From Atractiella rhizophila (lineage: Eukaryota), in NCBI GenBank assembly GCA_021432655.1, contig MU271308.1, positions 50,179-98,190 of the forward strand: 48,012 nucleotides of DNA, given 5' to 3'. A model generated the notes under the pieces. It did not search any database. It saw nothing but the letters and a program-made list of their open reading frames with translations, and had not been told where the DNA came from. Position 1 is the first letter of the stretch. Each line of letters opens with the position of its first letter. Shown here one piece after another: positions 28,689 to 39,900 of the stretch. The position numbers were made by a program, and so were the translations under genes.

Positions 28689-30176
28689 ATGTCTGTGCTG
28701 TTTGAGACGAGTCTAGGAGACATAGTGGTACGTTATTCCTTGTTTTATTACAAACTGGGAGTGAAGTGTCTTGTACTTGACACTGCAGGTGGATTTGGAG
28801 GTCACTCTCTGTCCAACGCTTTCTCTCAATTTCCTCAAACTCTGCAAAACGTACTATTACAATTTCTGCGTCTTCTTTAACGTGCAAAAGTCATTCATCG
28901 CACAAACAGGCGACACGACAGGCACGGGAAACAGCTCTCAATCCATCTTCTCCCTCCTCCCTCCCTCTTCGAAACACTACCAACCCTTCCCTCACTTCCC
29001 ACCTGAACTCCACCCAACGAAACTCAAACATGACAACGTAGGGACGCTGTCCATGGCTGTGGCACAAGGAGGGGTAGGCAGCCAGTTCTTCTTCACCCTT
29101 GCGTCGGCAGCGGACGCGTCGAGTGGCGGAGGAGAGGGAATGGAGTATCTTGACGGTAGACATGCTCCTTTTGGACGAGTGGTAGAGGGATTGGACACTC
29201 TGGCAGCAATCAACGACGCGCTCTTGGATCAGGAGGGACGACCATTGCGGGACATCCGAATACGCCATGTCATCGTCTTGGACGACCCATTCCCCGATCC
29301 CGAAGGATTGGTAGTACCTGAGAACTCTCCAGTCCCTACCCCAGCGATCTTAAAAAGCTTACGAGTCGGAGAAGAAGAAGACCTGGATGCCCAGAATCCT
29401 GAAGAATTAGCGAAAGAGAACGCTGCTCGGGATGCGCGAGCTCAGGCTCTCACGCTTGAGATGGTCGGTGACCTGCCTTTCGCGGACGTCAAGCCTCCTG
29501 AGAATGTACTCTTCGTTTGCAAACTCAATCCAGCGACGAGGAGCGATGACCTAGAACTCATTTTCTCGAGATTTGGCAAGATTACAAGTTGCGAAGTTAT
29601 CAAGGATGTTAAGACAGGCGATTCGCTACAGTACGCCTTCATCGAATTTGAGGAGCAGGAGTCGGCAGAGAAGGCGTATGAAAAGATGGACAATGTTCTC
29701 ATTGACGACAGGCGAATTCACATTGATTTCTCCCAGGTTAGCTCTCCACTTTCTATTCGTTTTAAAATCCCTGATGATTGGTGCTAATTCGTTGCAATGC
29801 ATTACAGAGCGTGTCCAAACTCCACAACTCCTGGGTGTTCAACCGCACCGGAGGTCGCCCACCACCATCCAAACGCCCTCATCGTGATGTCTCTCCCCCT
29901 CGCCGTCGAGACGACGGGTACGACATGGTGTTCGATGTTGGGGATTCATATGGAAGAGAAAAGAAAGGAAGGAAGAACGATGCTGGTCGCGATTCGGATC
30001 GACGCCGTAGAAGGAGTAGGAGCAGAAGTCCGCCACGGAAACGTGAAGACAGACAGCGTAACCGTGATCCCGAACGTGATGGAAGGAGAGACCGTGGCGG
30101 CGAAAGGGATGGATATCGGGATAGGGATAGGGATAGGGGCGAAAGGGGAGGCAGGGAAAAGGATAGGAGACGATAG
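28689..30176 (+). CDS. PPIL4: Peptidyl-prolyl cis-trans isomerase-like 4 (cyclophilin + RRM + RS/RD tail; Rct1/Cyp6-like)
   Basis: [97 protein letters not shown]. Last intron 29737-29807. Confidence 0.95.
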
Positions 30177-30744
30177 TCGCGGTCTGAGATGTCTAGTGAC
30201 GTGGTGGGTCGGTTTCTACCCTGTTTATACCTACAGCAACTGGTTCTATTTAGCTCTACGAGATAATGAGCCGTATCAGTTGCCAATACAAAGGTGGCAT
30301 TGTACATGCATTTAAAGGCAACTCCAAGTGTGATGCTTGTGACAGCAATCATTCTGAGGATTCTGGAGACTTGAAGCTGAATGTGGTATCCGGACGCCTG
30401 ACGTTTGGCGTGGGAGACGTTTCCTTAAACCAATTTTGCCCGAGTCCGATCAGTCTCTCCACCATTGCAACATCCGCACCCGTTGCTGGGTGATCACATT
30501 CCTGCAAGAGGAGCTGATCACTTCCGCCAGTCCACCGTGCTCACGAAACCATGTCAAAATTGATTTATATGCATGGCCCTTCACATGCCTCCTCGACCAA
30601 TAGATCTGCAACTTTTGGGTGTAGCACGACTTCCATCCTTAATTTCGAAAGATCCCTTCCTCCCCTGCTCTTTCAAAACTAAGAGTTGCTCCCTGGAGGT
30701 AGTCAATTCGTCCCCTCCTTGCTCTAGGTTGACCATTCATCAAC

Positions 30745-36465: not shown

Positions 36466-36943
36466 GTTGTTTTCGTCGATTCATAGACCTATCGTTATAC
36501 ATTTCCTAGTTGATGCTTAAATGCGTTCCTTGTTATCACAGTCTTGTCACTCTACTGCAGGGCTGTCCTTTGTATAATGGCCCTGATATTCCCTGGTCTG
36601 AAAAACCTCTCACAAGGTGGAACGCATGGGACGATTGTTCTTCCGTCTACTCTAGCAACTTCACTGAAATATCAGTCCGACGGTCGTCTGTACCAGCATT
36701 CTATTGAGCCCCCAGATAAGGATTTCTTCAAAGACTAAACCAAACAATTTATGGAGTAGTCTCTTTCCTTGTGCGTTTCAAAGTGAGTCATTTTTGCCAC
36801 CAAACCACCACAACCACAAGCGTTGACTATCCATCTCGCCATTACTGAGCCTGGAATTCGTGGACAGGTACATTCCTAGCCTTTTGGCCATTCCTGTAAA
36901 CATTACTTTGCTCTTCTTGCTTTTCTGACCCTCCATCTCCACC

Positions 36944-39900
36944 ATGTCCCATGCAGGCTCCAAGAAGCGTTCCATCTCTCCCGAGTCCTACAACCGCTCG
37001 TCCTCTTCTAGATACGACGAAAGGAAACGCGATAATCCTTGGTTTCGCGATCCTGGAGCATCTGATAGTCCGAGAGCGAAAGATTATGGCAGTCCAAGAG
37101 ATAGGGAGCCTGGGAGGAGTCCGAGGTTAAAATACGAATGGGATGACAGAGACAGGAGGAAGGAACGTCCGTCAGCATCGAATTCGAGGCGAGGAAGCGA
37201 AAGGAACGAACGTGAACGCGAGCGGGATAGGGATAGAGAAAAGGATAAGCGAACATATTCGTCTCATACAAGTAGCCGCAGGGACAGTCCCAGAGAACGG
37301 TCACGGGAGAGAGATAGGGACAGGGACAGAGAGAAGAGAAGGGAACGCGAGAGATCGCCTGATAGGCGGAGAGACAGAGACAGAGCGAGGGATAGCGACA
37401 GGGACCGGAATGGAGGAAAGAAAACGGACCGGGAAGAGGGAGAGTGAGTGTTCTTCTCGTTAGACGGTTGTGGTTGGGAGGTTTTTATGTTTCGAGAGAG
37501 GAGAGTGGACGATGCTTCAACAATAAGGAAGAAAACTTGCAAAGTGTGCAGGGTATCTAAATTTCAACTTGTGTGATTGTAGCCTTCCGCTTTCTGTTGC
37601 TCAGACCATGTCTTGCCACGAACCTGTGAGATCCCTTTCCGTTCTGCATGCGATCCTGACAGTTCTTCTTCTAGGTTATCACCATCTCCACCTGCACCAC
37701 CACCCTCAAAGAAACGTTCACCGCCGCCACCACCTTCTAAACCGCGCACTCCGCCCCCACCTGTCGCCATCACGCCAGCTATATCTCTGCCGACACCGGA
37801 GGAAGACGACGATGACGCGGCAAAGAAAGAGATGACGGCGGAAGAGATATTGGCCGAGCGGCGTAGGAAACGTGAACTGATCATGGCCAAATATTCGCAA
37901 AGTATCTCTCAGCCAGGCAGTGGCAGTGAAGGGACATCGAGGAGTGAGAGCCCCGCAGTACCAGGGGATGGGAGAAGGATCGGATTGGAGAGTCCAACAA
38001 AGGCTTTGGCATTGGAAGGATCAGGCTTGAGGAGCGAGATTGTTGCAGACGGAAGTGATGGTGGAGGTACGTAACTCTACTTTTTAGAGATTCGGTTCGG
38101 TGGTTGGTTGACTATTTTGATTAGACACACCTGCGGTGGGGGAGTTTGATCTGGAAAAGACAGCGGACGAGGAGCTACCCGTAGAAAATGATGGGCGGGA
38201 ACCCAGTGTCTCGGCTGCTGATTATGATCCTGAGAAAGACCGTCGAGAAGACGATGCCAGGCAAATGAGAAAGGAAGGCGTCGTCGCAAATGGAGTTGTA
38301 GGGTTGACGGAAGATGTGGAGATGGAGGATGAGGGTGAAGAGGAAGAGGAGGGTGAGGATGACGAGTTTGATATGTTTGCCGACGAAGTAAAGCCAAAGA
38401 AGAAAGTCGGGGGTAAGAGGAAGAATGGAATCGTGCCTGTGCGCTTTTGTTCCTGGCTCTCTCCCTCGAATCGTAATGTTGACAAGTCGGACAGGTCATC
38501 GATCGTGCTGCACATGCAACTGGGATTCAAGACGACTTCGATGATTCTGAGGGATATTACCGAGTGTTAATTGGCGAGTTACTGGACGATGGAAGATACC
38601 ACGTTCACGCCAGCTTAGGCAAAGGAATGTTTTCGGGTGTAGTGCGGGCTCGGGATACACAAAACGGGAATAAGGAGGTGGCGATCAAAGTAATTAGGAG
38701 CCAGGAGAGCATGTCAGTCTATTTCTCCTTCTGTTCTAAATTCGACATGAGAACTGATTGACTTTTGGTCGGATAGGTACAAAGCTGGTCAGAAAGAAGC
38801 CAATATCTTGAAAAAGTTGATGGATGCTGACCCAGCGGATAAGAAGCATGTCATTCGGTTGGAGAGGAGCTTCGAGCACCGTGGTCACCTCTGTCTCGTC
38901 TTCGAGTCACTTTCGTACGTTCTCCCTACTTGTCATGCTGTATGAACTGACAGAGAATACAGGATGAACTTACGAGAAGTTGTCAAGCGGTTTGGAAAAG
39001 ATGTTGGACTTAATCTCAGGGCAGTCAGAGCTTATGCCCATCAACTATTCTTGGCTTTGAGTCTTCTGAAGAAGTGCAACATCATGCATGCTGACATCAA
39101 GCCCGATAATATTCTGGTAAGTTAGATATTTTCCCGAAAGGCAACAGAGTTGACAGCAGGGTAGGTCAATGAGAACAAATCGGCGCTTAAGCTTTGCGAC
39201 CTTGGTTCTGCATCGGACGTTATCGAAAACGAAATCACTCCATATTTGGTCAGCAGGTTTTACCGTGCTCCAGAGATAAGTTAGTCCATTTCGCTGACAG
39301 CCTGATGCTATCTAACCTGGATCGTATAGTTTTAGGGCTACCGTACGATCCTGCAATAGACGTTTGGAGTATTGGATGTACTTTGTATGTCGTTTTCTCC
39401 TGTTCGCACATACCATTCTCATTTCTATAGGTACGAGCTGTACAGCGGCAAGATTCTCTTCCCGGGAAGGAATAACAATCATATGCTACGTGCGTGATCC
39501 CCCATCTCTACCTCACTTACCTAGGCTGACTTTTTGCCCATAGAGCTACATATGGAGCTCAAAGGTCGATTCAATACAAAGTTGCTGAAGAAGGCGCAGT
39601 TCGTTGATCAGCATTTTGACGACCAGATGAATTTCATTGGTGCTGTGCGCGACAAGATCACAGGCTCTGTGCGTCAATTCACTTTCCTTCTCTTCCTCTA
39701 GTTTACCTGTAATTTGGTAGGAAAATGTGCAGAAAATGACCTTTACCAAACCAACTCTCGACGTTCGAGGTCGTCTCATGCAATCTTCACAAACAAGGAA
39801 GCTCAACCCAACAGATATTCAGATGCTCTCTTCCTTTTGTGATCTCATCGAAAAGACCCTTACCCTAGAAGCGAGCAAGAGGATCACGCCAAAGGTGTGT

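Follow-up and report, generated by a model that had tools for sequence, protein, structure and literature searches.

The stretch analysed here, which we call the window, is 48,012 nucleotides (nt) of the fungus Atractiella rhizophila (GenBank assembly GCA_021432655.1, contig MU271308.1, positions 50,179 to 98,190 of the forward strand; coordinates below count from its first letter), and its centre of interest is a pair of neighbouring genes, one for a PPIL4/Rct1-type cyclophilin-RRM protein and one for a PRP4 (PRPF4B) kinase, both of which are cut by a two-copy tandem. Self-BLAST and alignment find four exact two-copy tandems in this 48-kilobase (kb) window, named T1 to T4 here, and the one that cuts the two genes is T4. 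Identity between the copies is 99.3% in T1, 93.7% in T2, 94% in T3 and about 90% in T4, and the window sequence contains zero N. The genes and features at T4 are these:

28689-30176, plus strand: PPIL4/Rct1-type cyclophilin-RRM gene of 451 amino acids (aa), with exons 28689-28727, 28789-29736 and 29808-30176
29738-33687, plus strand: T4 copy 1, a 3950-nt unit
33688-37637, plus strand: T4 copy 2, a 3950-nt unit of the same content, its right side joined to the remaining PRP4 gene
33686-33689: junction of copy 1 and copy 2, with a 2-nt TT microhomology
33756-34131, plus strand: copy-2 version of the PPIL4 last exon, placed by alignment with copy 1
33018-33496, plus strand: copy-1 version of PRP4 exon 1, placed by alignment with copy 2
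33497-33622, plus strand: inverted segment, the reverse complement of 37444-37569, which is the first 126 nt of PRP4 intron 1
36944-39981, plus strand: PRP4 kinase gene as assembled, with the copy-2 exon 1, RNA joints and at least 10 further exons

The T4 unit holds, in order, the end of the PPIL4 last intron, the PPIL4 last exon, a poorly transcribed spacer of about 2.8 kb, the PRP4 5' region, PRP4 exon 1 and part of PRP4 intron 1. Its left end lies one base into the PPIL4 last intron and its right end within PRP4 intron 1, and BLAST aligns the two copies in two pieces, at 92% identity over 783 columns and 89% over 3024 columns. We read this structure against four public runs: X1 and X2 are DNA from one sample and hold 0.77 and 0.68 of the window's words, X3 is RNA, and X4 is RNA from a slightly diverged relative. 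All counts of contigs, joints, letter differences, indels and loose ends from these runs are counts among those listed. A k=31 graph was simulated both for a real tandem and for two alleles, and the branch points of each were compared with the contig ends.

As assembled, PPIL4 takes its last exon from copy 1. Its exon 2 is 100% identical to P0001, an NCBI protein of Atractiella rhizophila that at 451 aa equals the gene model in length, and Pfam places in that protein a PPIase domain at residues 3-174 (PF00160, E-value 1.6e-33) followed by an RRM at residues 254-324 (PF00076, E-value 1.9e-18). The closest named relatives of P0001 are PPIL4 proteins of Pucciniomycotina, at 69% identity. The last intron (29737-29807) is backed by an RNA joint, and the copy-1 last exon codes for 122 aa rich in R, S, D and E, an RS/RD tail; the domain order of PPIase, RRM and tail is the one found in PPIL4, Rct1, SIG-7 and AtCyp59, the tail being described in the excerpt of PMC4991786. 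In the copy-2 version of this exon an extra C at 33788/9 leads to a TGA at 33834-33836, and the tail is gone after 11 residues of the exon. A further 1-nt loss lies near 34112, both 1-nt indels sit in short base runs, and there are two 3-nt insertions. The two versions differ by 23 substitutions, 10 of them synonymous and 13 not, and inspection by eye found no alternative splice site that would restore the copy-2 frame. The protein collection yielded no second PPIL4 allele (P0001 forms a cluster of one), and a metagenome scan with the PPIL4 exon-end pattern gave 0 matches. As a separate observation, contigs of X1, X2 and X3 all stop at 29882, inside the tail exon and at a point where the two copies are identical; this shared end suggests another variant outside the assembly, perhaps an indel allele.

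The assembled PRP4 gene takes exon 1 from copy 2 (36944-37443), followed by intron 1 (37444-37674) and by later exons that come from nine further RNA joints. The model built on 10 RNA joints has an open frame except inside 39431-39668, where one more intron is needed. For the exon at 38495-38710 the best solved relative is the human PRP4 homolog (E-value 5e-16, against 1e-5 for SRPK/CLK), as it is for the exon at 38964-39116 (2e-22, against 2e-6 for DYRK2), and single exons give Pfam Pkinase matches below the cut-off. Judged by sequence similarity, the kinase is of the PRP4 type and not another CMGC kinase, and neither it nor the assembled PPIL4 is unusual beside its known family. A protein search with PRP4 exon 1, a low-complexity query, found no match among longer proteins, and a metagenome scan with the PRP4 exon-end pattern gave 0 matches. 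The copy-1 version of exon 1 has TAG at 33114-33116 where copy 2 has TGG, a stop at codon 33 (W33*), as well as a 21-nt in-frame gap after about 33176. The inverted segment that follows begins exactly at intron base 1, and GTTGAA replaces GTGAGT there. Intron base 1 is an unlikely spot for a random break, and the position of this breakpoint is unexplained; the 126-nt segment may be a small contig that was placed in reverse.

The descriptive part of the original prediction, which was made from the letters alone, therefore stands. Alignment bears out a copy 1 that pairs an intact PPIL4 last exon with a PRP4 carrying TAG at 33114 and an inverted intron start; alignment and translation likewise bear out a copy 2 whose PPIL4 last exon is frameshifted, stops at 33834 and loses its RS tail; and the Pfam positions agree with its statement that this lesion leaves the cyclophilin and RRM domains untouched. 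Since the unit ends inside both genes, both lesions, about 3.3 kb apart within the unit, fall in gene fragments that the assembly does not join to the remainder of their gene, and one whole PPIL4 (with the copy-1 exon) and one whole PRP4 (with the copy-2 exon 1) remain as assembled.

Our preferred interpretation, to which we give a probability of about 0.55, is that the two T4 copies are two haplotypes of one single-copy PPIL4-PRP4 interval, a heterotype false duplication in the sense of Ko et al. 2022 (PMC9516828, in excerpt). The assembler would then have written both haplotypes of a heterozygous A. rhizophila isolate head to tail, and each haplotype would hold one PPIL4 and one PRP4. In the copy-1 haplotype the PRP4 allele would stop at codon 33 and have its intron start inverted, and in the copy-2 haplotype two 1-nt indels would lie in the RS/RD-tail exon of PPIL4. 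Such lesions would lie in repulsion, as ordinary sheltered heterozygous variants or, for the indels, as consensus errors. The likeness to the cases in the excerpt of PMC9516828 lies in diverged haplotypes of one locus that appear as neighbouring paralogues on one scaffold, in haplotype-specific words for each copy, and in a junction without read support, which here applies to T3. Those cases mostly have a gap between the copies and half depth, whereas the present window has no N and no clean half depths.

Within T4, the evidence for alleles comes from PRP4 exon 1. The two versions of this exon differ by 20 substitutions, spread over first, second and third codon positions as 6/1/13, and the lone second-position change is the TAG itself. 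By our arithmetic, a neutrally decaying orphan would show one second-position change or none with a p of about 0.01. Divergence is 4.2% in exon 1 and 2.9% in the PRP4 5' region, and reaches 9.0% in the spacer and 20.4% in the 280 nt just upstream. PRP4 exon 1 thus does not look like an orphan evolving without constraint; the PPIL4 exon does fit an absence of constraint. The RNA adds to this. The X3 contig of the copy-2 exon 1 stops 10 letters into exon 2, exactly where the last 31-mer with the copy-specific base at -21 ends, so the same splice junction apparently takes a second exon-1 version as well. A joint from 33496 to 37675 is listed as well (GT..AG, 2 contigs, 21 letters on the short side), and we infer that both PRP4 exon-1 versions are spliced to one exon 2.

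The other tandems of the window provide the second line of evidence. They are built as follows:

5265-8550 and 8551-11833, plus strand: T1, a 3286-nt unit holding the 3' part of a long gene
13579-14482 and 14483-15383, plus strand: T2, a unit of about 900 nt holding the 5' exons of a plus-strand gene
20441-23548 and 23549-26656: T3, a 3108-nt unit with one end within a minus-strand gene and the other within a Pex2/Pex12-like RING gene

The gene fragments that these three tandems leave unjoined differ from their joined partners by 12 substitutions in T1 (codon positions 1/2/9), 13 in T2 (2/3/8), 14 in the minus-strand gene of T3 (0/1/13) and 5 in the Pex2/Pex12-like gene of T3 (0/1/4). Pooled, this gives 44 substitutions at 3/7/34, of which 33 are synonymous and 11 non-synonymous; no stop was seen in these fragments, and their sole indel is intronic. 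By this coding pattern, the unjoined fragments of T1 to T3 differ from their partners as working alleles do.

For T3 the runs speak directly. In the simulation, a real T3 tandem predicts extra branch points at 20441, 23547/9 and 26654. Unbroken DNA contigs run over 20441 (X1 and X2, 20001-20913) and over 26654 (X2, 25758-26747). Two contigs with 0 mismatches, 21245-21940 and 24353-25050, are exactly the two arms predicted for an allelic bubble, and the contig that extends the T3 left flank has copy-2 letters at 20815 and 20848. Because the contigs cross both outer points, match the bubble arms and carry copy-2 letters where they continue the left flank, T3 is two haplotypes laid in tandem. Nine of the 10 differences listed for T3 copy 1 are copy-2 letters, and the arm depths in X1 are 126 and 253, contig depths being noisy. 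The same status is strongly suggested for T1 and T2, and we infer that T4 is of the same kind as all three.

T3 also bears on how small lesions in this assembly should be read. Its Pex2/Pex12-like copy that is joined to the RING finger carries a frameshifting 1-nt deletion at 26571 (compared with 23464), the unjoined copy is intact, and the base lacking at 26571 is present in the X2 contig that enters the right flank. The deletion probably reflects a consensus error or a minor allele, and single-base indels in the assembly are, as T3 shows, minor alleles or errors. The rule that lesions sit in orphans fails here, the frameshift being in the joined copy. The T1, T2 and T3 junctions each hold one extra A that matches neither flank and that looks like the trace of an assembly join; the T4 junction has none.

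The most serious competitor is a real T4 tandem, possibly present in one haplotype only, in which a whole PPIL4 and a whole PRP4 are kept, the orphan ends decay and nothing is knocked out. A true tandem duplication of this allele-specific sort, at haploid depth, is also recorded in the excerpt of PMC9516828, and T4 resembles it in being an exact two-copy tandem within one contig, in a noisy depth that may be at the haploid level and in having end genes free to decay; it departs from that case in that one orphan exon keeps the substitution pattern of a selected gene.

Several observations favour such a duplication and count against our preferred interpretation. The T4 lesions lie only in fragments that would be orphans, a placement that under two alleles is a one-in-four coincidence and that comes on top of the need for a lesion in each of two adjacent genes. 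Substitutions in the PPIL4 exon are spread nearly evenly over codon positions (7/6/10), and the T4 junction, with its 2-nt microhomology, is unlike those of T1 to T3 with their extra A. In the simulation, two alleles predict a branch at 29741, where the left flank must also enter copy 2, and the X1 and X2 contigs starting at 28703 or 28784 and ending at 29882 run over 29741 without a break; in both runs the left flank continues only into copy-1-like sequence. The bubble arm predicted at 29741 is 197 nt long, and a 166-nt bubble in T3 stayed unmerged; the contig builder's limit is one that we take to be about 131 nt. Further right, contig ends at 30779, 31162 and 31214 and arms at 31402-31574, 31559-31803 and 31900-32350 fall on the branch points predicted between the copies, which suggests that copy-2-like spacer is present in X1 and X2. 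As for the RNA joint from 33496 to 37675, 20 of the 21 letters on its short side are identical in both copies. At 33687/8 itself a real tandem would add no branch point in the simulated graph. The listed rows include none at 33114, 33789 or 33687/8, and no joint from 29737 to 33688 or from 33687 to 37638, which counts for neither interpretation.

Depth does not decide the matter, the contig values being too noisy. The copy-1-type arms of T4 have depths of 248, 286 and 341 in X1 and of 186, 212 and 189 in X2, with flank contigs at 286-358 and 189-246, respectively, and these arm and flank values fit a duplication in one haplotype as well as they fit three haplotypes. They also fit a real tandem with a full dose of copy 1 on the left and of copy 2 on the right and lower orphan parts. 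Dose was not read from the bin depths over copy 2 (131-144 in X1, 9-63 in X2) and over the copy-1 exon 1: a contig matching the two copies at 95% or more was placed on both, which blurs these values.

Four features do not sit well with a real tandem. The joint from 33496 to 37675 would need an intron of 4.2 kb in a gene whose other introns measure 46-231 nt. The PRP4 exon 1 and 5' region that would be orphans have diverged far less than the spacer, with changes at third positions. A spacer divergence of 9-20% implies an old duplication, in which the orphans should be much more decayed. And three tandems of the same build within the same 48 kb act as haplotypes. The original prediction had held that alleles and an old tandem fit this block equally well; with the haplotype-like nature of T1 to T3, the third-position changes in PRP4 exon 1 and the splicing of exon 1 in RNA, the odds shift to alleles, and a real tandem keeps about one chance in three.

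The two assembled copies are, in addition, probably not all that the sample contains. A test of two against three haplotypes from contig depths fits three in X1 and falls in between in X2, the depths being noisy. At 31653 X1 has both T and C and copy 2 has a gap, which with the two letters indicates that the sample probably holds more than two haplotypes. Of 14 listed differences to T4 copy 1, 6 are copy-2 letters and 8 are not, and the best-covered contigs at 30907-32280 lie about 1% from copy 1, partly with copy-2 letters. Because those 8 letters come from neither copy, the sequence with the best coverage in the runs is a third version that resembles copy 1 on the left and, by coverage and a contig at 37468, copy 2 on the right.

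Other observations concern the spacer and the flanks. At 31069-31205 an X3 RNA contig has 15 other letters in place of 135 nt of spacer, and at 35013 contigs of X2 and X4 leave copy 2 for sequence that is absent from the window; the T4 spacer either varies in structure or has a short stretch in common with another locus. The loose-end 30-mers at 35013 and 38360 (X2, X4) have no match in the window and are probably other loci. To the left of PPIL4, at 26959-28410 on the minus strand, lies a 483-codon open frame with no Pfam match, whose RNA contig depth, up to about 118,000 in X3, far exceeds any other in the stretch examined. Neither an Rfam scan nor a tRNA scan of the window gave a hit. A literature search found no published account of the A. 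rhizophila genome assembly or ploidy; a 2026 paper (PMC13347111, in excerpt) credits a colleague in its acknowledgement for "unpublished genome data for Atractiella".

A more far-reaching possibility within the allelic interpretation, and one that we consider improbable, is that deeply diverged haplotypes (about 10% in spacers) hold complementary loss-of-function alleles of two adjacent genes from the splicing and transcription machinery, PRP4 W33* against loss of the PPIL4 tail, and that this sheltered load keeps the block heterozygous. Relevant precedents are the sheltered recessive lethal or deleterious alleles of heterozygous Candida albicans (PMC6374597 and PMC5061868, in excerpt) and the haplo-lethal alleles near the mating-type loci of Microbotryum (PMC7898863, in excerpt). 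If the T4 lesions are real, the likeness is that a diploid or dikaryotic fungus maintains loss-of-function alleles of important genes in the heterozygous state. Those cases, in the excerpted texts, rest on genetics, through loss of heterozygosity and haploid viability, and the present one, in contrast, rests on an unphased assembly; no link to a mating-type region was seen in the window. Were the conjecture true, a single exchange by simple crossover within the 2.8-kb spacer would be enough to bring back a fully intact haplotype, and the best-covered short-read contig pieces may come from such a haplotype.

The original prediction took one step more and proposed balanced-lethal-like haplotypes, that is, alleles whose lesions are both real and recessive lethal, so that each haplotype is viable only beside the other. 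Repulsion of the lesions in two haplotypes does survive under the allelic interpretation, as the sequence is assembled, and both this arrangement and the very high divergence between the haplotypes are what a balanced-lethal system would present. Prp4 kinase is essential in fission yeast. For the PPIL4 family, PMC4991786 (in excerpt) speaks of essential members in S. pombe, Arabidopsis and C. elegans. The lethal step itself is nonetheless unsupported and, in our judgement, very improbable: both lesions are read from the assembled letters, the two in PPIL4 are unverified 1-nt indels of the kind that a short-read contig contradicts at 26571, the PPIase and RRM domains survive the PPIL4 lesion, the listed X1 and X2 contig pieces follow the intact halves (28703-29882 and the copy-1-type arms on the left, the copy-2-type contig at 37468 on the right), and the sample probably holds more than two haplotypes.

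For work on this fungus, the practical meaning is that exact two-copy tandems of 1-4 kb in this assembly should be considered as possible haplotype pairs before duplications, pseudogenes or knock-outs are claimed from them, and that single-base frameshifts call for confirmation in reads. If the lesions at T4 are real and allelic, PPIL4 and PRP4 would provide a small example of sheltered load, of a known kind, in a highly heterozygous root fungus, and would hold some interest for the question of how heterozygosity is maintained in such isolates.

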